Assembly (NCBI GenBank): GCA_011051565.1
Contig: DRKX01000089.1
Span: 4,808 to 68,807 of the forward strand
Reading direction: 5' to 3'
Source: Nitrospirota bacterium
Lineage (GTDB): Bacteria; Nitrospirota; Thermodesulfovibrionia; Thermodesulfovibrionales; JdFR-85
DNA length: 64,000 bases
A program made the translations under genes and the position numbers. Within the stretch, counting starts at the first letter, position 1. Every line of letters begins with the position of its first letter. The notes below the pieces were generated by a model. It saw nothing but the letters and a program-made list of their open reading frames with translations, was not told the DNA's origin and made no database searches. This document shows positions 49,558 to 64,000 of this stretch, piece after piece.

Positions 49558-50430
49558 ATGTTCAAGGGTTCGATAGTAGCGCTGGTCACGCCGTTCAAGA
49601 ACGGCGCGGTGGACGAGAAGGCGTTGTCAGAGCTGATCGAGTGGCATATAGCAGAGGGTACGAACGGCATAGTGCCCTGCGGCACCACGGGTGAGTCGGC
49701 GACCCTGACATACGAAGAGCACTACGGTGTGATAAAGACCACGGTAGAGGTGGTAAACAAGAGGGTCCCGGTCATAGCAGGCACCGGCGCCAACTCGACG
49801 GAAGAGACGATCGTCATGACGCGGGAGGCGCAGAGGCTCGGGGCCGATGCGGCACTGCTCGTCGCGCCGTACTACAACAAGCCCTCGCAGGAGGGCCTGT
49901 ACAGGCATTACAGGGCGGTGGCGGAGGCCGTAGACCTTCCGCTCGTTCTCTACAACGTCCCAGGGCGCACTGCGGTCAACATCCTCCCGCAGACGGTCGA
50001 GCGGCTTGCTGAGATAGAAAACGTCGTCGCCATCAAGGAAGCCACCGGCGACATGAGACAGGTGAGCGACGTCCTGAGGCGGTGCGGCGAGAGGATCACC
50101 GTGCTCTCAGGAGACGACTTCACCACATACACACTCCTCGCCCTCGGCGGCAAGGGAGTGATCTCGGTGACCGCCAATGTGATGCCGCGGGATGTCTCCC
50201 GGATGTGCGCACTCTACGAGGAGGGGCGTTACGACGACGCTCGGCAGCTCCACTTCAGGCTCGAACCGCTCAATGCAGCCATGTTCCTCGAGACCAACCC
50301 CATTCCCGTCAAGACGGCCCTGTCGATGATGGGCAGGACTACCGCGGAACTCCGCCTCCCGCTGTGTGAGATGTCGGAGGCGAACAAGGAGAGCCTCAGG
50401 AGGACCCTGCTCTCGTACGGCCTGGTCTGA
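49558..50430 (+). CDS. dapA: 4-hydroxy-tetrahydrodipicolinate synthase
   Basis: Motifs are PCGTTGES, YNVPGRT and the Schiff-base Lys in AIKEATG. The RBS is GGAGGAGG. Confidence 0.95.
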   Translation: MFKGSIVALVTPFKNGAVDEKALSELIEWHIAEGTNGIVPCGTTGESATLTYEEHYGVIKTTVEVVNKRVPVIAGTGANSTEETIVMTREAQRLGADAALLVAPYYNKPSQEGLYRHYRAVAEAVDLPLVLYNVPGRTAVNILPQTVERLAEIENVVAIKEATGDMRQVSDVLRRCGERITVLSGDDFTTYTLLALGGKGVISVTANVMPRDVSRMCALYEEGRYDDARQLHFRLEPLNAAMFLETNPIPVKTALSMMGRTTAELRLPLCEMSEANKESLRRTLLSYGLV

Positions 50431-50500
50431 GGAACGCGCGGTACAATCGTGTCCTGTAACAAGGGCCTGTTTGCGGGGTTCGGAGAAGGCGGAGTCTTCC

Positions 50501-50530
50501 TTGAAAATCCTGATACCTATCTGGTAGTAT
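50501..50530 (+). promoter_or_regulatory. Putative promoter placed for a leaderless transcript of the RDD gene
   Basis: TTGAAA (50501-50506), an 18-nt spacer, then TAGTAT (50525-50530). The A of ATG 50536 lies 6 nt downstream of the -10. No Shine-Dalgarno sequence is present. Confidence 0.45.
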
Positions 50531-50535
50531 TTTAG

Positions 50536-50958
50536 ATGACAACCCCTGCAGGACTTCTCTCCCGTGTGGTCGCAAAGGTCGTAGACCTCGTGCTGGCTGC
50601 CGTGGCCGTCGAGCTGTTACATGAGACGGGCCTGATTGCAGGGCTTGTATATATCCTGACAGCCGACGGCTTCTTCAACGGGAGGAGTCCCGGCAAGATG
50701 CTCCTTGGGCTGAGCGTGGTAAGGGCGGATGGGGGGCGCTGCACCGTCAAGGAATCCATATTGAGAAACCTGACCGTTGCCCTTGGTTTCCTGCTCTGGA
50801 GGGTCCCGTTGATAGGATGGCTTCTCTTCCTCGCCGTGCTCGCTTTTGAGTTCATAGTGCTTTACGGGAGTGATACGAACAGGCGTCTCGGTGACGAGAT
50901 AGCAAAAACCAATGTAATGGAAGTGGCAGGCGATAAAGGGGATGTTGGGGGCGGCTGA
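50536..50958 (+). CDS. RDD-family membrane protein
   Basis: The product reads LLSRVVAKVVDLVLAAV...GRSPGKMLLGLSVV...RNL...RRLGDEIAKT. The hydrophobic segments follow the RDD pattern. Confidence 0.6.
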   Translation: MTTPAGLLSRVVAKVVDLVLAAVAVELLHETGLIAGLVYILTADGFFNGRSPGKMLLGLSVVRADGGRCTVKESILRNLTVALGFLLWRVPLIGWLLFLAVLAFEFIVLYGSDTNRRLGDEIAKTNVMEVAGDKGDVGGG

Positions 50959-51008
50959 TCAAGGGCCGCCGGCTGAGACCGCTTACTGCTGCTGCGTCAG
51001 GAGGGTAG

Positions 51009-52037
<1,029 letters not shown>

Positions 52038-52044
52038 TGTTGAG

Positions 52045-52824
52045 ATGAGGAACAGACGGGTTGTCTTGCTTTTCCTTGTCGTTGTCGTATCCGCCTCCCT
52101 TATGACTTTTCAGAGCACGAGGGGACCGTTCAAGCCGCTGAGTGCTCTTCAGACCCCGCTGTACCGGCTGGAGAAGACCTTTGCCGCAATCCTGAAGATC
52201 ATCAAGTCGCCTTTCCTGTACTATTTCAAGCTGGAGAACGAGAACCGCCTGCTCAGGGAGGAACTCGTCCGGATGAAGATGAAAGAGCAGGAGTACAGCG
52301 AACTCAAGATCGAGAACGAGAGGCTGAGGACCATACTGAAGATCAGGGAGGCGGAGCCGCGATTCGTGTCGGCTGCGCGTGTCATATCCTCAGGGATAAG
52401 GCAGTGGCCTGAGCTTATGATCATCGACAAGGGGGCGGCGAGCGGCATCCGGAAGGACATGGCCGTGAGGACGCCAGACGGACTGGTGGGAAAGACCACA
52501 GAGGTCATGCCGGGGTTCTCCAAGGTCCTGCTCGTGACGGACGTGAGTTTCTCCGTATCCGTGAGACTCCAGGATTCGAGGATAGAGGGAGTGCTCTCGG
52601 GCAGGGGGGATGGTTCGTGCGTGTTGAAGTACATCCCGAGGGATGAAGTGGTCGAGCCCGGGACACTGCTGATCACCTCTGGGCTCGACGGGGTCTTCCC
52701 GAAGGGGATTCCCGTGGGGTACATAACCGGGGTGAAGAAGGGAAGCGAGCTCTTCCTCGATGTCGAGGTCGAACCGATAATAAGGGCGTCCATGATCGAA
52801 GAGGTCATGGTCTTCAAGAAATAG
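52045..52824 (+). CDS. mreC: Rod-shape-determining protein MreC
   Basis: It has an N-terminal TM helix, a coiled coil (LENENRLLREELVRMK) and a beta domain (VVEPGTLLITSGLDGVFPKGIPVG). It sits directly after mreB. Confidence 0.85.
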   Translation: MRNRRVVLLFLVVVVSASLMTFQSTRGPFKPLSALQTPLYRLEKTFAAILKIIKSPFLYYFKLENENRLLREELVRMKMKEQEYSELKIENERLRTILKIREAEPRFVSAARVISSGIRQWPELMIIDKGAASGIRKDMAVRTPDGLVGKTTEVMPGFSKVLLVTDVSFSVSVRLQDSRIEGVLSGRGDGSCVLKYIPRDEVVEPGTLLITSGLDGVFPKGIPVGYITGVKKGSELFLDVEVEPIIRASMIEEVMVFKK

Positions 52825-52835
52825 GACCCGGGCGG

Positions 52836-53297
52836 ATGAACGTGACCATGAAGAAGGCGGCCCTCTGGAGCGTGATCGGTGTAGGCGTGTTCCTGCTACA
52901 GTCCGTGATCTCGGTAGGGCCGATGAAGCTGAATCTGACGCTGCTTCTCGTCTATTACGCAGGCCTCAGGAGGGGCGAGCTGGCGGGTGTTGCAATCGGA
53001 ATACCCGTGGGCTTCCTCGAGGACGCCCTGTCAGGAGGCTTGATCGGTCCCGGTATGCTCGGAAAGGGGCTCGTGGGCATACTGCCTGCGTATCTCTCCG
53101 AGGGCTTCTTCATATGGACGCCGATCCTCGGGATGCTTGCAGTCTTCACGCTCACCGTCATCGACGAGACCGTGGTATACACGTCGTTAGCCCTCTTTTC
53201 ACAGAGGCCTGCGCCTGTCCTGGACTTCCTGGCCCTCACCCTGCTGAAGGCATCCATCAACGCCCCATTCGGGTGGCTCTTGAGGACAGGGAAATGA
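52836..53297 (+). CDS. mreD: Rod-shape-determining protein MreD
   Basis: A small polytopic membrane protein in the conserved mreBCD position. It has an ATGA overlap with mrdA. Confidence 0.7.
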   Translation: MNVTMKKAALWSVIGVGVFLLQSVISVGPMKLNLTLLLVYYAGLRRGELAGVAIGIPVGFLEDALSGGLIGPGMLGKGLVGILPAYLSEGFFIWTPILGMLAVFTLTVIDETVVYTSLALFSQRPAPVLDFLALTLLKASINAPFGWLLRTGK

Positions 53298-55072
53298 GAG
53301 ACAAGAGGAAGACGATAACGGTCCTGACTTACATCACAATAGCGGTCTTCGTCGTCTTCCTTCTCAGGCTCTGGCAGCTCCAGATACTGAAGGGCGGTTA
53401 CTACAGGAAGCTGTCCGAGAAGAACAGGGTCAGGGTCTTCAAGATTCCTGCGCCGAGGGGCATAATATACGACAGAAACGGCATACCCCTCGTGAAGAAC
53501 GCCCCGTATTTCATAGCCTCGTTGATCCCGGACCTCTCCAAGGAGGGACTCGACCTCGAAGGCCTCGCGCGGCTCCTGGACATGCCGGTCGATGAGCTGT
53601 CGAAGAAGATAGCGAAACAGAAGAGGCACGTGCTCGAGCCCATAAGGCTGAAAGAGGGGCTGGACTTCGCAGAGGTCGCCAGGATTGAGGCGAGGAGGTC
53701 GGACTTTCCGGGCCTCGTGGTGGAGACCGAGATAACGAGGGCATACCCTTACGGCAGCACCGGGGCGCACCTGATAGGATACCTGAGCCTGCCCACCGAG
53801 GCACAGTTGCGCAAGGGGCTCTTTGCCGGAGTTCCAAAGGGGACCTTCGTAGGGCAGTGGGGTGTCGAGGCCCTCTACGACAAGAGGCTGAGGGGGGTCC
53901 CTGGAAAGAGGTTCATCGAGGTCGACGCACTCGGAAGGCAGTTGCGCACTCTCAGGGTGGTTCCCCCGCGCAAGGGTGAAGACCTGACGCTCAGCGTGGA
54001 CATCCGCACACAGAAGGCCGCAGAGGAGGCGTTCAGGGGAAAGGCGGGTGCGCTCCTGGCACTCGATCCCGATGACGGAGAGGTCCTTGCGCTGGTGAGC
54101 CTGCCCTCATTTGATCCCAACCTCTTCGTGCGCGGTATATCGCCGAGGCAATGGCGCAGGCTGCAGAGACATCCAGGCCATCCCTTTCTGAACAGGGTTT
54201 TCCAGAGCCAGTACCCCCCGGGATCGATTTTCAAGATAGTCACTGCCATAGCAGCCCTCGAGGAGGGGGTCGTGGACGAGAACTTCTCGGTGGAGTGCAC
54301 GGGAGCGATCAACGTGGGGATCTGGAAGTTCAGCTGCTGGAAGGGACAGGGCCATGGAACGACGGCGCTCAGAAAGGCCCTCGTCGAGTCCTGCGACGTC
54401 TACTTCTACGAGGTGGGCAGGCTCCTCGGCATGGACAGGATTGCCAAGTATGCAAACGCACTGGGGTTGGGAACCGCCCCCGGAGTCAACCTGAGTGCGG
54501 AGAAGGAGGGGCTCATACCGACTACGTCGTGGAAGCTGAGGAAGAAGGGGATTCCCTGGTACCTCGGAGAGACCTTCAATGCAGCGATAGGCCAGGGGTA
54601 CGTCTCCGTCACCCCTGCCCAGGCAGCCCTCATGATATCCGCCCTTGCAAACGGCGGCACCGTCTACAGGCCGGAGCTTCTCAAGGTCTCTTCCGGCACT
54701 GAACCCATGACAAAGCTCAGCCTCAGCCGGAGAACGCTCCGGCTGATCAGGGACTCACTCGTCGGTGTGGTCGATGACCCAAAGGGCACGGGGGGAGATG
54801 CGAAGTCGGAGATCGTGAGGATCGCCGGCAAGACCGGTACGGCACAGGTGGTAAAGATACCCGAATCGGTGAAGAGGAAGCTCGCAAGAAAATACAAGGA
54901 TCATGCGTGGTTCGTTGCTTACGCGCCGGCCGCGAATCCCATGATAGCTCTCTCGGTGTTCGTCGAGCACGGAGGACACGGAGGAGAGACCGCCGGTCCC
55001 ATTGCAAAGGCGACCATCGAGGCGTACATGAGGTCTTCAGGATACCATGCTGAAAGACAGGCTGAAAATTAG
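53294..55072 (+). CDS. mrdA: Penicillin-binding protein 2 (elongasome transpeptidase)
   Basis: The start is MRDKRKTITVLTYITIAVFVV. Motifs are PRGIIYDRNG, the SxxK motif GSIFKIVTA, and KTGTAQV. The track ORF extends upstream to 53114, inside mreD. Confidence 0.9.
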   Translation: MRDKRKTITVLTYITIAVFVVFLLRLWQLQILKGGYYRKLSEKNRVRVFKIPAPRGIIYDRNGIPLVKNAPYFIASLIPDLSKEGLDLEGLARLLDMPVDELSKKIAKQKRHVLEPIRLKEGLDFAEVARIEARRSDFPGLVVETEITRAYPYGSTGAHLIGYLSLPTEAQLRKGLFAGVPKGTFVGQWGVEALYDKRLRGVPGKRFIEVDALGRQLRTLRVVPPRKGEDLTLSVDIRTQKAAEEAFRGKAGALLALDPDDGEVLALVSLPSFDPNLFVRGISPRQWRRLQRHPGHPFLNRVFQSQYPPGSIFKIVTAIAALEEGVVDENFSVECTGAINVGIWKFSCWKGQGHGTTALRKALVESCDVYFYEVGRLLGMDRIAKYANALGLGTAPGVNLSAEKEGLIPTTSWKLRKKGIPWYLGETFNAAIGQGYVSVTPAQAALMISALANGGTVYRPELLKVSSGTEPMTKLSLSRRTLRLIRDSLVGVVDDPKGTGGDAKSEIVRIAGKTGTAQVVKIPESVKRKLARKYKDHAWFVAYAPAANPMIALSVFVEHGGHGGETAGPIAKATIEAYMRSSGYHAERQAEN

Positions 55073-56177
55073 CTACCAGGGCATAAGGAACTTCGACTGG
55101 CTGATGTTCTCCATACCGCTTCTGCTGACGCTGCTGGGGATAATGACGATATACAGTGCCACCAGGTCCGTCCTCGACGCCCAGCCGTCGTTCTACGTCA
55201 GGCAGTCTGTATGGCTGTTACTGAGTGTGACGGCCCTCTTCGTCTCTGCAAGCTTCGACTACAGAAAGCTGATGAACGTTGCTTACCATCTCTACGGCAT
55301 AGGCCTGATCCTGCTCTTTCTGACCATTGTGCTCGGACATACGGGCATGGGTGCGCAGAGATGGCTCCGGGTGGGGTCGTTCAGCTTTCAGCCCTCGGAG
55401 GTGTTCAGGATAGCCATAATCGTCGTCGTTGCCAAATACCTGAGCATAAAACGCTCTCCTCTCACCGCTTCTCCCCTTGCGATGCTCGTCCTCCTGTTCG
55501 TGCTCATCCCCTTCTTCCTCCTCTACAGGCAGCCGGACCTCGGCACAGCGATAACACTGGTCGGGATCGTGGTGCTGATGACGCTGGTGAAGGGCGTGCA
55601 GAGACGCATACTCGTCAGCCTGATCCTGGTGGTCGTCATCTCGCTTCCCTTTGCCGGGAACATCCTGTGGGAGGGCCTCAAGGAATACCAGCGCAACAGG
55701 CTGGTCGCGTTCATCGACCCGAAGGTCGATCCAAAGGGGATAGGCTACCAGATCGAGCAGTCGAAGATCACGATAGGCTCGGGCAGGTTGTTCGGCAAGG
55801 GGTACCTGAGGGGCACGCAGGGCCCGTTCCGGTTCCTCCCCGAGAAGCATACGGACTTCATATTCTCTGTCTTCTCAGAGGAGTGGGGGGCGGTGGGTTC
55901 CGTATTCGTGATCAGCCTCTACATGCTGCTGATCATCCGGGGGTACGAGACCGCCTTCTATGCAAAGGACGAGTTCGGAACACTGCTGTCGATCGGGATA
56001 AGCACGATGTTCCTCTTCTATGTCTTCATAAACATCGGCATGACCATGGGCCTGATGCCTGTTGTGGGCATACCCCTGCCCTTCTTCAGCTACGGCGGCA
56101 CCGCACTGCTTGCAAACTTCATCTGTGTGGGCCTGCTCATAAACGTGAGGATGAGGCGCTTCATACTCTTTTATTAA
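55047..56177 (+). CDS. rodA: SEDS-family peptidoglycan glycosyltransferase RodA
   Basis: A polytopic FtsW/RodA/SpoVE-family protein (PEKHTDFIFSVFSEEWG, GIPLPFFSYGGT). It lies downstream of mrdA. Confidence 0.9.
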   Translation: MLKDRLKISYQGIRNFDWLMFSIPLLLTLLGIMTIYSATRSVLDAQPSFYVRQSVWLLLSVTALFVSASFDYRKLMNVAYHLYGIGLILLFLTIVLGHTGMGAQRWLRVGSFSFQPSEVFRIAIIVVVAKYLSIKRSPLTASPLAMLVLLFVLIPFFLLYRQPDLGTAITLVGIVVLMTLVKGVQRRILVSLILVVVISLPFAGNILWEGLKEYQRNRLVAFIDPKVDPKGIGYQIEQSKITIGSGRLFGKGYLRGTQGPFRFLPEKHTDFIFSVFSEEWGAVGSVFVISLYMLLIIRGYETAFYAKDEFGTLLSIGISTMFLFYVFINIGMTMGLMPVVGIPLPFFSYGGTALLANFICVGLLINVRMRRFILFY

Positions 56178-56328: not shown

Positions 56329-59300
56329 TCAGACCTGCGGACGCGCCTGCACCACATAATAGGCATTCCCTGCAAAGGCTCCCTCGATATCCTGTGGAGA
56401 GCCCATCGCGGTTTCGACGGCCGTTCCGGCATCAGCGATGCGGTTCAGTATCTCCAGCCTGAACTTCTCGTCCCAGACGAGGGGTTCATCCGTGTAATCG
56501 AGCGGCACCTCCCTGGGCGGGGCCAGCATGACGCTGTCGTAGAGGCCTGCTCCTGCGTATCCGCTGAGGTCCTCGCCGTTTGAGTCCGAGCGGAATATGA
56601 GGCCTCCACCATAGAGTCCGGTGCCCTTGTTCGGATATGAAGTGATGCGGAGGCCGGGCCGCGTCTTATTCCTGGTGAAGCCGAGGGCCCTGCCCGGGTA
56701 GTTGCCGACGAGGGTCTCACCGAGGCCGAGAACGACCTCTGCAAAGAGCTCGTCGGTGTCGCCGGTGAATGGGTTGACGGTGTGAATGACGAATGAATAC
56801 TCCGCCTCCACGACCTGTTGGACGAGCACGGCCATGTAGAGGTCCTCGTCCGGGATGCCCGCCGCCCTCCGGCTGAGATACGCCCTCTCGTTCCACTTCG
56901 ACGCCCAGACACGCTTGATGCAGGTCCAGGCCTCGTCCCATTCCGGCCATGCAAGCCCAGCCCCTTCCATGACGCTGCGGAGCCTGGCGGGGAGCTCTTC
57001 GGGGTATTCGAGCTCGAGCACGGTCTTGCGTATCTCTGCGAGTGTCTCTCCTGCATCGCGGTCGAGCCTCGAGGCCAGCTCCAGGCAGCGTTGCCTGACC
57101 CCGCTGTTGGCCTCCAGGTCGAGGACCCTTTCGAACACTCCGAAGGGCAGTGCAACCGATGCGGGCAGGCGTATCCAGTCCGGCAGCCTGCCTCGGAGCC
57201 GGGTCAGGTTGAGGGACTTGCCGCCGACCACACCCTCCCTGAAGTCCTCTTCAGAGAGGGCATAGGCAGTGAACTCAGGCCGCGACACCTTCCTGAACCC
57301 CAGCCGTATCCGTGGCGGCAGGGCCGCCTTGTCGTCTCCGGTCTCCTCGAACTCGAGGTCTCCGGAGGGGGTTACTGTGAAGCTGAGCAGCCGTCCCCTG
57401 AGAGACTTGAGGCGTTCGAGGCACTTCGAGTCGTAACAGACGGCGAAGAGGAGTCCGGCGTTGCGTGCGCGTACGGCCACGTGCGATACGAGGTCGACGG
57501 CATCCGGAGTGATGACCGCGGTCACCCCCTCGGGCGGTTCTTCGTCACCCCGCACCCTGTCTGCAACGATGACAACAGGGGTCTCGAACCTTCGGCCCTG
57601 GACGTCCCCCAGTGAGCCGACCGTCTCCACGCGTCCGACACCCCGGCCCGGGCTGATCACCTGCCAGTCGCCGAGTTCGGCCCTCCTTCGCAGTACAGGG
57701 TCGAGGCGGCGCAGGAGCATGGATAGGACGAAAGCGGGCCTGCCGCGTACGATCTCTTCGGTGAAGAGGGTGATGGACCATGGATCGGCATTGAAAGCCT
57801 TGCCGAGCAGCTCGGCCTTGGGTTGGAACATCCGGTAATAGTGGTCGATGAAGGCGCCCACAGCGCGTCCGGCCCTGTCGAGTACGGCCTTTGCATGAAG
57901 TGACCAGTCACGGCCGGGGCTGTACTCCTGCTCGAGGCGTTTCCACTCACGGAGACACCCTGAGAGGTCGGCACTGTCATGGGTGAACCGGATGTTCTCG
58001 ATCACCGGTCCGACGAGCCGGACGAGCCGTTCCGTTTCAGTGCGGCGGTGGATGTTGCGCTCAACTGCAATCCGCATGAACTCCTCGAGAGCAAGGTCGA
58101 GATACAGCAGGTCCCGCACCCTTGCATGATCCCTCTCTGCGCCGAGCATCCGGTTGATGATCCTCCGCACCCGCGTGATCACCTCTACGAGGTCCACCAC
58201 AACTGCGCCCTGGTCGTCCCTGTGTGCCAGTATGAAGTCGAGCAGCCCGCCTGTCCCGCCATCCAGCAGGTACCTTGCGGCATTGACGGCGCTTTCGAGA
58301 TCGGTGCCGGAGTGAACCGACCTCAGCAGTTTCAGGTATTCCTCGAAGTCGTGTATGAGGGCGTCCTTGAGATGGGGGACGAAGTCCGGAGGGGTCTTGA
58401 TGGGCCGGTCAAAGCTCTCGAGACGCTCCTTCGTGACACCGCCGGCCTCGAGCACCCTGTAGAATGTGTCGAGGTCTCCGTCGTTTCTGAGGAACTCCAG
58501 GTAGGCCTCACATATGACGATATCGTCAGGGGTGGCGTTGTTGTGGAGTTTCTGGTGCCATTCCTCGAGGAAGTGGCCGGATACCTCCTTTATGTGGTGC
58601 CTGTGCATTATGTGCAGTATCTCGTCGCGTATGCGCTGGCCTTCACCGCCCCTGCCGAGCGTGGTCATCATAAGGCGTATCAGCTCGCGGCTCTCGGCCT
58701 CGTCCACGTAGAGACCGGCGAGCTTCAGGGTGAGGCGGTCCTGTGCGTGGGTCAGCTCTCGCGGCTTTGTGTTATACTTCCGCTGCCATACCAGCTGCCT
58801 GATGGCTGAGAAGCGGAGCCACACGAACAGCATTGCCATGCCTTCGGCGTCGCCCCTGGCGTCGTCCAGCAGGTCGTGACAGAGGTTGAACCTGTGCATG
58901 AGCGTCCAGGAGTGGTCGCCCGTCTCGGCCCTGATGATCTCCTCTGCAAGGTGTGTGTGGGGCCTCTCCGCCTCCATGGTGACCGGCACGAAGAAGTCCC
59001 GCCCCCTCTCCTTGATCCAGCGGCCGGTGTCAGGCTGCCTCAGCACGAAGTCGATCCCAAGCGGGGCATCCTCCGGCGCGAAGTCGAGGATCAGGCGGTT
59101 CAGGCCCTCGTGCATGACGAAAGGCGTCTCTGCGGACCCGTCGCCCGGCAGGGTCGTTCCCTGTGGAAGCATGGAAGCCGGGGGCGTCAGCCACTCATTC
59201 CGTCTGTGCACCGCCACACCCCAGTGCAGTAAGAGCGGGCCGGGCATGTCCGTGACGAGGACGAGCCTGCAGGTGCCGTCGCCTCTCCTGCCGAGGGCTG

Positions 59301-59775
59301 CTGCGAGCCGGCCGTCAGGGCCGAGTCCGTAGACCCTCTGAAAAGCGACATCCAGGTCCACTGTCTCGGCCTTCAAGGCCTCCTCGGGCGAGGGGCCTTT
59401 CGGCCCGGGCAGGGAGAGCCTCACGCGGTAGTTCCTGCCGCTGTTGTTGTCCCAGCGGTCCTCCTCAGGGAAGTAGAGGACGAAGTTCAGGACCGGGAGT
59501 CTCAGGTCCCGGCCGAGCCGTAAGGTTACCCGGCTCCCGCCGTTGTCGGGCATGAAGGGTGTCTGCAGGGCGTTCCGGCCGAATGCCCTGCTGCCCTCGG
59601 GCCGGAGCGCGCTCGGTGGTATCTGCCAGGGGGCATCCTCATGCAGTGAGAGGCCCCAGTGGAGGATGCACCTCCTCCTGTCTCTCATCCGCAGCGAAAC
59701 CTCGATGCCCCTCTCCGCCTCCCGGCTCTCCACTGTCAGGGTGATTCCGCTCTTCGTCCTTATCTCTCCGGTCAT
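56329..59775 (-). CDS. Alpha-glucan,water dikinase (GWD)-like protein: tandem CBM45-like modules + central GWD region + phosphohistidine domain + PPDK_N-type nucleotide-binding domain
   Basis: There are two N-terminal repeats with an LHWG/W..PP signature (CILHWGLSLHEDAPWQIPPS and LLLHWGVAVHRRNEWLTPPA). The central motif is EEWHQKLHNNATPDDIVICEA. The phosphohistidine context is VDLVSHVAVRARNAGLLFAVCYD (His765, codon 57481-57483). The C-terminal ATP-grasp domain shows GGKSLNL, WASKWNERAYLSRR, MAVLVQQVV and GSPQDIEGA. Confidence 0.8.
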   Translation of the reverse strand: MTGEIRTKSGITLTVESREAERGIEVSLRMRDRRRCILHWGLSLHEDAPWQIPPSALRPEGSRAFGRNALQTPFMPDNGGSRVTLRLGRDLRLPVLNFVLYFPEEDRWDNNSGRNYRVRLSLPGPKGPSPEEALKAETVDLDVAFQRVYGLGPDGRLAAALGRRGDGTCRLVLVTDMPGPLLLHWGVAVHRRNEWLTPPASMLPQGTTLPGDGSAETPFVMHEGLNRLILDFAPEDAPLGIDFVLRQPDTGRWIKERGRDFFVPVTMEAERPHTHLAEEIIRAETGDHSWTLMHRFNLCHDLLDDARGDAEGMAMLFVWLRFSAIRQLVWQRKYNTKPRELTHAQDRLTLKLAGLYVDEAESRELIRLMMTTLGRGGEGQRIRDEILHIMHRHHIKEVSGHFLEEWHQKLHNNATPDDIVICEAYLEFLRNDGDLDTFYRVLEAGGVTKERLESFDRPIKTPPDFVPHLKDALIHDFEEYLKLLRSVHSGTDLESAVNAARYLLDGGTGGLLDFILAHRDDQGAVVVDLVEVITRVRRIINRMLGAERDHARVRDLLYLDLALEEFMRIAVERNIHRRTETERLVRLVGPVIENIRFTHDSADLSGCLREWKRLEQEYSPGRDWSLHAKAVLDRAGRAVGAFIDHYYRMFQPKAELLGKAFNADPWSITLFTEEIVRGRPAFVLSMLLRRLDPVLRRRAELGDWQVISPGRGVGRVETVGSLGDVQGRRFETPVVIVADRVRGDEEPPEGVTAVITPDAVDLVSHVAVRARNAGLLFAVCYDSKCLERLKSLRGRLLSFTVTPSGDLEFEETGDDKAALPPRIRLGFRKVSRPEFTAYALSEEDFREGVVGGKSLNLTRLRGRLPDWIRLPASVALPFGVFERVLDLEANSGVRQRCLELASRLDRDAGETLAEIRKTVLELEYPEELPARLRSVMEGAGLAWPEWDEAWTCIKRVWASKWNERAYLSRRAAGIPDEDLYMAVLVQQVVEAEYSFVIHTVNPFTGDTDELFAEVVLGLGETLVGNYPGRALGFTRNKTRPGLRITSYPNKGTGLYGGGLIFRSDSNGEDLSGYAGAGLYDSVMLAPPREVPLDYTDEPLVWDEKFRLEILNRIADAGTAVETAMGSPQDIEGAFAGNAYYVVQARPQV

Positions 59776-59868
59776 ACGGGTTATTATACCTCTTTTTGCA
59801 GCGGATACGTATTCGATCGCAACCTGCCGAAACCAGAGTCCGCTGCTCGGGCGGAACGGCGTTTTCTG

Positions 59869-59898
59869 TTGACGATTTCAGCGCCGTAATAATACAGT
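59869..59898 (+). promoter_or_regulatory. Putative promoter of the GH57-malQ unit
   Basis: TTGACG (59869-59874), an 18-nt spacer, then TACAGT (59893-59898). Confidence 0.3.
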
Positions 59899-59984
59899 AT
59901 ACCTAAGTGATGAGATCGTTGAGTAGAGGTTCGATGCCGTACCGTCACGCAGCGGTCGGCGTAGAGAGAGGGGATCGGTGAGGG

Positions 59985-62414: not shown

Positions 62415-62460
62415 CCCGTTCGTGGGGATGCGCCGGAGCAAGGGGGGAGGCTTGATTTTC

Positions 62461-64000
62461 ATGGAAATCCGTAGACTCATAGATGAACTCTCTGAACTCT
62501 GCGGCTTCGTGTCCGAGTACAGTGACGCATGGGGCAGGCGCAGGGCCGTTCCGCTCGAGACCAAGGCGGCCGCCCTCAGGGCCGTTGGCTATGACACGGA
62601 AGATGCGGAAGGGTTGAGGAAGGCGATAGAGGGGCTGAGGTGGGAGAGGTACCGTGAGCTGATAGAGCCGGTGAAGGTCGTCTCGGTGAACGCCCAGCCC
62701 GGCGTGCTCCGCATCTTCATCCCGGCTGACGAGGCCGACGGGAAGACGCGGCTCAGGTGGCGTGTCACCGGAGAGGAGGAGAACGATACCGAGGTCCGAG
62801 AGGCTCTGCTCTCGGATGTCGGGCAGACGGCGGTGAAAGAGTTCGGCGGCAGGAGGGTCATAGAGGCACTGGTCGCCGACAGGGATGACCGGCCGCCGGG
62901 TTATTACGACGTAGGGGTCGAGGCCGTGCTCCAGGGGCGGACGCTGTCAGGGCGGATGCGGCTCATCGTGACGCCTGACAGGGCCTACCTGCCACCTGCG
63001 CTGGCCGGCGGGGGCAGGGCGTGGGGCCTTGGAATAAGCCTCTACGCGCTCCGCTCCGGCGGCAACCAGGGAGCGGGTGACCTCGGAGACCTCGGCCGGG
63101 TGCTCGAGTGGACGGGCGGCAGGCTCGGCGGAGACTTCGTGGCTATAAACCCGCTGCACAGCATCACCAACCGGCTGCCTGCCGGCGTGAGCCCTTACTC
63201 TCCGCTCAGCCGGCTTTATTGCAACATGATATACATCGATATCAATGCCGTTGAAGACATCCGGGACTCGAGACGGGCAAGGGCGGTCATGGAGAGTCCG
63301 GAGTTCGGTGAAGAGCTCGAAAGGCTGAGGCAGTCCGAGCTGATCGACTACGAGGGGGTTGCAAGGCTCAAGACCCGGGTGCTCAGTGCCGCGTTCCAGT
63401 ACTTTTACGAGGAACACCTCCTTCAATCAACAGCGAGGGGCCGGAGGTTCAGGGCTTTCGTCGCTTCCGAGGGCAGGGCGCTCGACGACTACGCAACCTT
63501 TATGGCCCTTCATGAAGAGTTCGGCAGCCGGGGGATCCGCCACTGGAGGGACTGGCCCCGCGGATACCACAGTCCCGACACCCATGAGGTCAGGATGTTC
63601 AGAGAGAGGCATGAACGGGCCGTTACCTACCACAAGTATATCCAGTGGCTGATCGATGAACAGCTTGCCGATGCATCAGAGAAGGCCGCAGGGGCCGGCA
63701 TGTCCATAGGCCTGTACAGGGACCTCGCAGTCGGCTCGCTCACTGAAGGCAGTGATGTGTGGGCCAACCAGGATATATTCGCCATGGACGTAGACGTCGG
63801 AGCACCACCGGACGCTTTCAGCCTGAGGGGCCAGAACTGGGGCTTCCCTCCGCTGGTCCCCTCGAGGCTCAGGGCCCAGGGCTACGAGTTCTTCATAGAG
63901 ATGATCAGGAGGAACCTCAGGCATGCCGGGGCCATCCGCATAGACCATGCCTTGGGCCTTTTCAGGCTCTTCTGGATACCGCGGGGTTTTAAGCCGCAGG
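62461..64000 (+). CDS. malQ: 4-alpha-glucanotransferase (amylomaltase, GH77) with N-terminal extension; 3' end outside the window
   Basis: The frame is open from ATG 62461 to the window end and is absent from the ORF track because it has no stop. Motifs are WGLGISLYALRS, VSPYSPLSR, GAPPDAFSLRGQNWGFPP and IRIDHALGLFRLFWIP. The RBS GGGGGGAGG lies upstream. Confidence 0.85.
   Translation, partial: MEIRRLIDELSELCGFVSEYSDAWGRRRAVPLETKAAALRAVGYDTEDAEGLRKAIEGLRWERYRELIEPVKVVSVNAQPGVLRIFIPADEADGKTRLRWRVTGEEENDTEVREALLSDVGQTAVKEFGGRRVIEALVADRDDRPPGYYDVGVEAVLQGRTLSGRMRLIVTPDRAYLPPALAGGGRAWGLGISLYALRSGGNQGAGDLGDLGRVLEWTGGRLGGDFVAINPLHSITNRLPAGVSPYSPLSRLYCNMIYIDINAVEDIRDSRRARAVMESPEFGEELERLRQSELIDYEGVARLKTRVLSAAFQYFYEEHLLQSTARGRRFRAFVASEGRALDDYATFMALHEEFGSRGIRHWRDWPRGYHSPDTHEVRMFRERHERAVTYHKYIQWLIDEQLADASEKAAGAGMSIGLYRDLAVGSLTEGSDVWANQDIFAMDVDVGAPPDAFSLRGQNWGFPPLVPSRLRAQGYEFFIEMIRRNLRHAGAIRIDHALGLFRLFWIPRGFKPQ

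Follow-up and report, generated by a model that had tools for sequence, protein, structure and literature searches.

The stretch of 64,000 nucleotides analysed here (the window; contig DRKX01000089.1 of the Nitrospirota bacterium assembly GCA_011051565.1, positions 4,808 to 68,807) carries an open reading frame (ORF) whose product is quite probably a genuine, intact and active cytoplasmic alpha-glucan, water dikinase (GWD) of the GWD1/GWD2 type, the activity being predicted by homology. All residues to which a role in plant GWD has been ascribed to date are conserved in this protein. The initial annotation had proposed, from the letters of the sequence, a complete GWD architecture with all its parts in order. 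The order of the Pfam families, the match of the central domain to the potato enzyme and a structural model bear this out. The positions of the domains and of the surrounding genes are collected in Table 1.

Three Pfam families follow one another in the window GWD, PF23166, PF22973 and PF01326, each above its gathering score. The protein aligns with Gossypium GWD1 (XP_012467413) over 1129 positions with 42% identity. Per domain, the identity to the Gossypium protein is 28% for CBM45_1, 35% for CBM45_2, 44% for the central domain, 44% for the phosphohistidine (His) domain and 53% for the ATP-binding domain. An AlphaFold2 model calculated from an alignment of plant, algal and bacterial sequences has a mean predicted local distance difference test score (pLDDT) of 81 and a predicted template modelling score (pTM) of 0.66. 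It contains five domains, namely two beta-sandwiches, an all-helical domain (about 21 helices), a His domain of alpha/beta fold and an ATP-grasp domain. The same layout was described for potato GWD1 (StGWD1; PMC13553574). Residues were compared in an alignment of the window GWD with Gossypium GWD1, Nymphaea GWD2, the Gloeochaete, Cyanidium and Picocystis (green alga) proteins and three bacterial relatives, and invariance was scored over 16 bacterial GWD sequences from several phyla. About 220 columns are invariant in the latter set, every catalytic position included. The tryptophan triplets of the CBM modules and the motifs EEWHQKLHNN, FTEEIxR, GDEE and SHVAVRARN are both kept in the plant and algal alignment and invariant in the 16 bacterial sequences. 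The sequence has neither a signal peptide nor a transit peptide and begins directly at CBM45_1. Since the enzyme lacks a signal peptide and depends on ATP, its substrate must be intracellular. G+C content is even across the GWD region (0.58-0.62). Antisense or overlapping ORFs inside the gene (e.g. 57979-58809 and 56818-57615, both on the plus strand) found no independent support and were regarded as by-products of high G+C content.

The N-terminal part consists of two CBM45-type modules. PF23166, the GWD1 Ig-like N-terminal domain, matches two stretches (E 1.8e-42; 144.8 bits, with a cut-off of 27). This family was used as a proxy for the CAZy CBM45 model. It can stand for CBM45 because its two matches in plant GWD fragments fit the coordinates of CBM45_1 and CBM45_2 of StGWD1 (PMC13553574). 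The plant fragments in this Pfam comparison had at most 745 residues; full-length eukaryotic sequences came from the exhaustive search of representatives described below. Both modules carry the LHWG...W..PP signature reported by the initial annotation, as LHWGLSLHEDAPWQIPP at residues 38-54 and LHWGVAVHRRNEWLTPP at residues 183-199. Their tryptophans, W40, W50 and W108 in one module and W185, W195 and W253 in the other, align with the Trp columns of plant, red-algal and glaucophyte proteins and are invariant in the 16 bacterial sequences. A linker of about 45 residues joins the two modules. Bacterial GWDs differ in their number of modules, and so do the eukaryotic clades. Shorter bacterial GWDs of about 1005-1040 residues (L007:2549-5674, L013, L017:9926-13024, and also P0035, P0026, P0017 and P0029) have a single CBM45, with one PF23166 match, and the remainder of these variants is 61-65% identical to the window GWD.

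For the central region, residues 289-699, a phmmer search of the PDB returned the potato GWD1 central domain, known from crystal structures (9ha9_A, E 7e-97; 9qvi_A, E 2e-96). In StGWD1 this all-helical domain spans residues 483-926 (PMC13553574). It includes the block singled out earlier as a conserved GWD signature, EEWHQKLHNNATPDDIVICEA, at residues 404-424 (nucleotides 58504-58566), in which EEWHQKLHNN occupies residues 404-413. On the FTEEIVR helix, E673 and R677 align with StGWD1 E900 and R904, which were proposed as helpers in phosphotransfer (preprint 10.64898/2026.02.06.704335 of PMC13553574). E673, E674 and R677 are invariant among the 16 bacterial GWDs. A Foldseek search of the PDB with the full model matched the ATP domain only, the StGWD1 central-domain entries being absent from the matches; the homology of the central domain therefore rests on sequence.

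In the His domain, which PF22973 matches, the helix of the catalytic histidine, SHVAVRARN, is held within DLVSHVAVRARNAGLLFAVCYD at residues 761-782 (nucleotides 57430-57495), where the initial annotation had placed the phosphohistidine motif. His765 (codon 57481-57483) aligns with StGWD1 H992. In the potato GWD1 literature, H992 is the catalytic histidine and E971 an assisting glutamate. E745 lies in GDEEPPEG, aligned to plant GEEEIPDG, and probably corresponds to E971. H765, R769, R771, N772, C780 and E745 are invariant among the 16 bacterial sequences. A second cysteine, C785, is found five residues after the conserved C780 in the motif CYDSKC (residues 780-785, nucleotides 57421-57438), near the catalytic histidine. 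As C785 is not conserved in other bacterial sequences, a regulatory disulfide is unlikely.

The C-terminal PPDK_N-type ATP-binding domain, also named in the initial annotation, is recovered by PF01326; its identity to Gossypium GWD1 extends over 309 positions. The Foldseek matches of this domain are the ATP domain of rifampin phosphotransferase (Rph; E 1.7e-8) and then phosphoenolpyruvate (PEP) synthase. Rph and PEP synthase were likewise reported as fold matches of the C-terminal part of potato GWD1 (PMC13553574).

Table 1 Features of the GWD locus (positions in the window, unless a locus of the context survey is named)
Feature	Residues	Position	Strand	Evidence or remark
GWD-family ORF, complete		56329..59775	minus	ATG start, 1148 aa, one terminal stop; ORF call, Pfam, phmmer, alignment, AlphaFold2
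CBM45-type module 1, beta-sandwich	~22-122	59410..59712	minus	PF23166; W40, W50, W108; model strands 2-119
CBM45-type module 2	169-265	58981..59271	minus	best PF23166 stretch; W185, W195, W253
Central all-helical domain	289-699	57679..58911	minus	phmmer against 9ha9/9qvi; ~21 helices in AlphaFold2 model
Phosphohistidine domain	704-815	57331..57666	minus	PF22973, 114.9 bits, 2e-33
ATP-binding domain, PPDK_N/ATP-grasp	840-1148	56332..57258	minus	PF01326, 94.5 bits, 1e-26
Intergenic region GWD/GH57, divergent, 209 bp		59776..59984	.	sequence
GH57 + DUF3536 protein, 809 aa		59985..62414	plus	PF03065 1e-18, PF12055 1.7e-110; divergent from GWD
GH77 4-alpha-glucanotransferase (MalQ), runs off window end		62428..64000	plus	PF02446 6.8e-81, MalQ_N; TIGR00217 287.6 against 205.65 bits
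dapA		before mreB, first gene of stretch 49558-56177	plus	housekeeping
mreB		51009-52037	plus	rod-shape cluster
mreC		52045-52824	plus	rod-shape cluster
mreD		52836-53297	plus	rod-shape cluster
PBP2-type transpeptidase		~53300-55072	plus	rod-shape cluster
rodA		55047-56177	plus	rod-shape cluster; convergent, 152 bp from GWD stop codon
TIM-barrel dikinase, examples from other bacterial loci		L036:13476-16910 (+); L009:13635-17174; L042:13632-17078; L029:13802-17308; L078:2923-6477		

By homology with potato GWD1, the reaction would proceed as follows. The two CBM45-type modules would anchor the enzyme to an alpha-1,4/1,6-glucan inside the cell, and the C-terminal ATP-grasp domain would bind ATP. 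His765 would attack the beta-phosphate of ATP, with transfer of the gamma-phosphate to water, giving AMP and Pi. The His domain would then swivel to the central helical domain, facing the E673/R677 helix, and the beta-phosphate would be passed to a glucosyl hydroxyl, probably at C6 as in plant GWD. The phosphate esters would disturb the packing of the chains and make the polymer accessible to the GH57 enzyme and MalQ encoded next to GWD, a place that phosphorylase and debranching enzymes would take in other lineages. We infer the acceptor, the phosphorylated position and the physiological role in glucan mobilisation.

Several observations weigh against the assignment of the window protein as an alpha-glucan, water dikinase. 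Among 81 bacterial GWD loci surveyed for gene context, the GH57-DUF3536 gene is linked to GWD in 13 and MalQ in 10. No phosphoglucan phosphatase of the SEX4, LSF2 or laforin type occurs among the recurrent neighbours in these loci, so that a complete phosphorylation-dephosphorylation cycle would be conjectural. No other glycogen gene (GlgA, GlgB, GlgP, GH13, GH57 branching enzyme) is present within the 64-kb window. The window lineage also lacks the adjacent second dikinase that is common in other bacteria, rodA following GWD there. No biochemical study of any bacterial GWD was found in the literature searched. Finally, plant GWD reportedly has a strong preference for long-chain or crystalline glucan over glycogen (work of Mikkelsen in 2004 and Hejazi in 2008). 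The suggestion of a semi-crystalline polymer in the bacterium would derive solely from this substrate preference of the plant enzyme, and the computed data speak neither for nor against it.

It is conceivable, if rather improbable, that the same dikinase chemistry serves another acceptor or another role. Soluble glycogen or maltodextrins might be phosphorylated to tune branching and synthesis, a different hydroxyl might be used, or the substrate might be another intracellular polysaccharide. The glucan-binding site of GWD has not been located even in potato (PMC13553574), so that acceptor specificity cannot be read from the sequence, and the CBM45 modules are the least conserved part of the protein with respect to plants (28-35% identity). 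Nevertheless, all their aromatic positions and the proposed phosphotransfer residues of the central domain are conserved with plant GWD. A biosynthetic role would be permitted by the lower affinity of branching enzyme for glucan bearing phosphate (PMC13011383), and the neighbours in many loci are synthetic enzymes (GT5 synthase, GH57/GH13 branching enzymes) rather than degradative ones. In the window, however, the GH57 and MalQ neighbours correspond to the DPE-type disproportionation of plant starch degradation. A PEP synthase, a pyruvate, phosphate dikinase (PPDK) or an Rph-type enzyme is a vanishingly improbable identity for the protein and is effectively refuted on sequence grounds. Close homologues are indeed named 'Phosphoenolpyruvate synthase' or 'PEP/pyruvate-binding domain-containing protein', but these names reflect the absence of a GWD model in NCBIfam. 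The only NCBIfam matches are PEP synthase and Rph models, and they reach at most 79 bits, over about 80 residues of the ATP-grasp core, against cut-offs of 598-1700 (598-976 for PEP-synthase models, with 79 bits compared to 883 in one case). Rph and PEP synthase are the nearest solved folds for the C-terminal domain; however, Pfam detects neither a PEP-utilizer mobile domain nor a C-terminal PEP/pyruvate-binding domain, the domain order is that of GWD, and the match to the GWD-specific central domain (E 7e-97) extends over some 410 residues. Among homologues, GWDs rank first and not PEP synthase or PPDK, which settles a check proposed in the initial annotation; none of the outcomes that it had named as refuting was encountered.

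Contamination of the assembly by eukaryotic DNA and a non-functional, decaying relic of a recent algal transfer are both highly improbable and may be taken as refuted. Cenci et al. 2018 suggested an origin of bacterial GWDs by lateral gene transfer (LGT; PMC6260743), and outside bacteria the window protein is closest to the GWDs of Archaeplastida (41-44% identity). Yet the gene stands between rodA/PBP2/mreBCD and GH57/MalQ on one contig of uniform G+C content, the synteny is kept in several metagenome-assembled genomes (MAGs) and on a 72-kb contig, and homologues occur on closed or Mb-scale bacterial contigs. The intact ORF and the 220 or so invariant columns, with all catalytic positions among them, argue against a relic. 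As for a recent transfer, bacterial GWDs are mutually 50-79% identical over at least seven phyla, and identity between bacterial and eukaryotic GWDs reaches about 46% at most. An ancient transfer, in either direction, is possible.

The GH57 and MalQ neighbours reported by the initial annotation were both confirmed, by Pfam and, for MalQ, by a TIGR00217 score above the cut-off. The GH57-DUF3536 protein retains the GH57 signature regions HGHFYQPPR, WLPE and DGETYGHH. Its catalytic Glu and Asp presumably lie in these motifs. It has no NCBIfam equivalog match and no signal peptide. A scan of the GWD locus for promoters and terminators gave weak consensus matches only; one of them, sigma-70-like and directed towards GH57, lies at 59869-59898 and is not evidence of function. 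AGAGG is found about 12-17 nucleotides upstream of the GWD ATG. The same gene arrangement, with a GWD 99% identical to that of the window, is present on a 72-kb ENA contig, where MalQ has 746 residues. Related Nitrospirota MAGs have the same synteny, and their rodA is 86-92% identical. When the 64-kb window was searched for a second dikinase paralogue and for glycogen genes, nothing came up besides GWD and one weak match to GH57.

Relatives of the window GWD are numerous in bacteria. With a word-index protein search, more than 1544 proteins match it at E <= 1e-10. The best 120 of these matches are full-length, contain the same three Pfam families and are 52-99% identical; they come from Nitrospirota, 'Deltaproteobacteria', Ca. 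Scalindua, Verrucomicrobiota and Deferribacteres. An exhaustive search of 1.84 billion representatives at 50% identity yielded 594 clusters at E <= 1e-30. A scan of GTDB, with one genome per species and two GWD-specific peptide patterns, led to about 321 confirmed stretches encoding GWD relatives. The best 80 of these 321 are all from MAGs or single-cell-type assemblies, and belong to Nitrospirota/Thermodesulfovibrionia, Scalindua and other anammox Planctomycetota, Verrucomicrobiota, Desulfobacterota, Acidobacteriota and Nitrospinota. The closest relatives of the window protein are from hydrothermal Nitrospirota and Thermodesulfovibrio MAGs (79% and 71%). JGI/IMG names many of the bacterial relatives 'alpha-glucan,water dikinase'. 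In NCBI and UniRef they appear as 'hypothetical', 'PEP/pyruvate-binding domain-containing protein' or 'phosphoenolpyruvate synthase', a mislabelling due to the lack of a GWD or PWD model in NCBIfam. The view of GWD as a hallmark of plants and algae, adopted by the initial annotation, is thus outdated at the level of databases, given the bacterial relatives counted above (about 321 GTDB stretches and over 1500 proteins). Since many uncultured anaerobes carry the family and IMG already annotates it automatically, the window gene is less singular than had been assumed.

For the context survey, ORFs were called in the 81 GWD loci and clustered without prior assumptions. Linkage of GWD to GH57-DUF3536 and MalQ is limited to Thermodesulfovibrionia-like and Scalindua lineages and is therefore a feature of these lineages, not a rule of the family. 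At least one carbohydrate-active enzyme (CAZyme) of alpha-glucan metabolism is found in the flanks in 46 of the 81 loci; of the 43 loci that reach 15 kb or more, 33 have one. These enzymes include the GH57 branching enzyme (GH57 + BE_C), GT5 glycogen/starch synthase, GlgB, GH13/hDGE-like proteins, DUF3417-type phosphorylase and MalQ. Gene context is good guilt-by-association evidence that bacterial GWDs act on a storage alpha-glucan. Neighbour cluster 7, considered as a phosphatase candidate, turned out to be made of generic histidine kinases and response regulators. Beside the GWD of an Acidobacteria MAG, a 1034-residue ORF (L005:5051-8152, plus strand) combines a GH57 branching enzyme (GH57 + BE_C) with a GT5 synthase and looks like a synthase/branching-enzyme fusion.

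The survey also revealed a paralogous dikinase. Seventy of the 81 loci have enough downstream sequence to be informative, and in 54 of them GWD is directly followed, on the same strand, by an ORF with an N-terminal xylose-isomerase-like TIM barrel (PF01261). The full protein, of about 1150-1200 residues, combines the TIM barrel with a region that partly resembles the GWD central domain, a His domain of the GWD type and PPDK_N. Over residues 381-1147, its identity to the window GWD is 26%, and it has more than 1200 database relatives. NCBI names it 'TIM barrel protein'. The automated JGI label is 'phosphoglucan, water dikinase' (PWD). The TIM-barrel dikinase may correspond in bacteria to plant PWD, with CBM20 replaced by the TIM barrel. 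If the JGI label is true, most carriers have in tandem the two dikinase types that work one after the other on starch in plants. A number of loci have the TIM barrel called as a separate ORF of about 310 residues after GWD instead of fused to a dikinase (L033:13459-14391, plus strand; L023, L034, L040, L053, L065 and L073), which may reflect a true split, a frameshift or the way ORFs were called. A conserved ORF of about 350-360 residues follows the TIM-barrel dikinase (L036:16910-17989, plus strand) and precedes a GH13 enzyme. It has no Pfam or NCBIfam match; an HLHLHDGH-like motif suggests a second, divergent metal-dependent TIM barrel. In some genomes this ORF appears fused to the TIM-barrel dikinase, giving proteins of about 1490-1500 residues (L077:3277-7782, 1502 residues).

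A neighbour-joining tree was calculated from 109 sequences and 823 columns, with 100 bootstraps, and rooted on the TIM-barrel dikinases. The GWD family is separated from them with 100% support. Several deep eukaryotic clades with a single CBM45 are well supported (the ciliate Climacostomum, Rhodomonas and a Volvox paralogue). Within the crown group of tandem-CBM45 proteins, which unites bacteria, Viridiplantae, red algae and the glaucophyte, bootstraps are 1-33% and bacterial monophyly obtains 19%. Such a backbone is compatible both with a eukaryote-to-bacterium transfer, as suggested by Cenci et al., and with a bacterial origin. The most basal GWD-like sequence, from Ca. Aureabacteria, and the outgroup are both bacterial. 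This sequence (P0348, MBN2143317.1), of 1106 residues and with a single CBM45, is divergent, sharing only about 32% identity with the main bacterial clade. It stands at the base of the family, with 94% support for the rest, and could inform rooting. Judged from the low mutual identity of its members across at least seven phyla, the GWD family is old and diverse within bacteria. A wider reading, which we offer as speculative and rather doubtful, would join these observations. The pair of GWD and PWD-like dikinase would be an ancient bacterial invention, kept as a tandem unit in the glycogen clusters of most carriers, where it would govern how a phosphorylated storage glucan, possibly long-chain or semi-crystalline, is turned over. 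Such bacteria would have been the source of the system for Archaeplastida, and not the reverse, and the window gene would represent the ancestral type of the plant enzyme in a lineage uncoupled from the partner.

Bacterial GWDs are already on record, in databases and in the legend of one figure. According to Cenci et al. 2018 (BMC Biol 16:137, PMC6260743), GWD was until then known from starch accumulators only; the legend of their Fig. 9 mentions bacterial sequences in the GWD tree and suggests LGT. In the 2026 structure papers on StGWD1 (PMC13553574; 10.64898/2026.02.06.704335) and in a 2026 review, GWD is assigned to plants and algae alone, and bacteria go unmentioned. In the literature searched, we found no description of the architecture, distribution, gene context, paralogue partner or function of bacterial GWDs. 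A Desulfotignum match in this literature concerns pyruvate, water dikinase and not GWD. A 2025 paper (PMC13011383) treats the occurrence of phosphorylation on bacterial glycogen as an open question. The window gene and its hundreds of bacterial relatives are concrete candidates for testing this. They also form a large and diverse set of sequences with which the GWD/PWD tree could be rooted and the origin of the starch-phosphorylation machinery reconsidered. The full-length structure of potato GWD1 was not obtained owing to flexibility (PMC13553574). Compact orthologues of about 1150 residues without the flexible linker, the closest relatives being hydrothermal, may be tractable for this purpose. 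The more novel material lies outside the window, in the near-universal tandem of GWD and TIM-barrel PWD-like dikinase and in the possible bacterial roots of plant starch phosphorylation.

Compared with known dikinases, the window protein is closest in organisation to plant GWD1 (potato R1/StGWD1, Arabidopsis SEX1; EC 2.7.9.4) and to the cytosolic GWD2, with which it shares the order CBM45-CBM45-central-His-ATP-grasp. Its identity to Nymphaea GWD2 is 39%. The CBM45 tryptophans, EEWHQKLHNN, FTEEIxR and SHVxVRARN are kept, and the ATP domains have in common the motifs WASKWNERA, GLGETLVG, IFRSDSNGEDL and QDIEG. Plant GWD1/2 have about 1300-1470 residues, against 1148 in the window GWD, and GWD1 has a transit peptide that the window GWD lacks. 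The linker between the CBM modules is about 210 residues long in the plant proteins, against about 45, and contains one or two DUF7067 repeats (PF23229), with no match in the window GWD. In plant GWD, CFATC is the redox-regulatory disulfide motif (2026 review). It is replaced by LFAVC in the window GWD, where the thioredoxin-regulated disulfide therefore cannot form; L776 is invariant in bacteria. By these sequence features, the window protein is inside the GWD family and outside the plastidial redox-regulated GWD1 subgroup of Viridiplantae.

A glaucophyte and a red-algal protein resemble the window GWD in the linker and in this motif. The GWD of the glaucophyte Gloeochaete wittrockiana (transcript, 1177 residues) is 44% identical to it and that of the red alga Cyanidium caldarium (KAK4537828) 41%, the latter with an additional N-terminal extension of about 340 residues. 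Both have a compact CBM45 pair without the DUF7067 linker. The motif after their catalytic histidine is of the LFATC/VLATC type, in which the first cysteine is absent as in the window GWD. They are nuclear genes of eukaryotes, and the bootstraps joining them to the bacterial clade are below 35%. As these proteins also have the short linker and lack the first cysteine, the long linker and CFATC look like additions of Viridiplantae rather than bacterial losses.

PWD/GWD3 (EC 2.7.9.5) shares with the window GWD the catalytic core made of the central region, the GWD-type His domain and PPDK_N. In plants, PWD works downstream of GWD and carries an N-terminal CBM20 rather than CBM45. No CBM20 family was found by Pfam at E <= 1 in the window protein, which has the CBM45-type modules instead. 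PEP synthase, PPDK and Rph have in common with the window GWD the ATP-grasp nucleotide domain and the swivelling phosphohistidine carrier. They differ from it in domain order. The window GWD has no PEP/pyruvate- or rifampin-binding domain and possesses, unlike these enzymes, the GWD-specific helical domain on the acceptor side and the CBM modules. The window protein is one of the family that comprises the bacterial GWDs of Cenci et al. 2018 and the proteins named 'alpha-glucan,water dikinase' in IMG.

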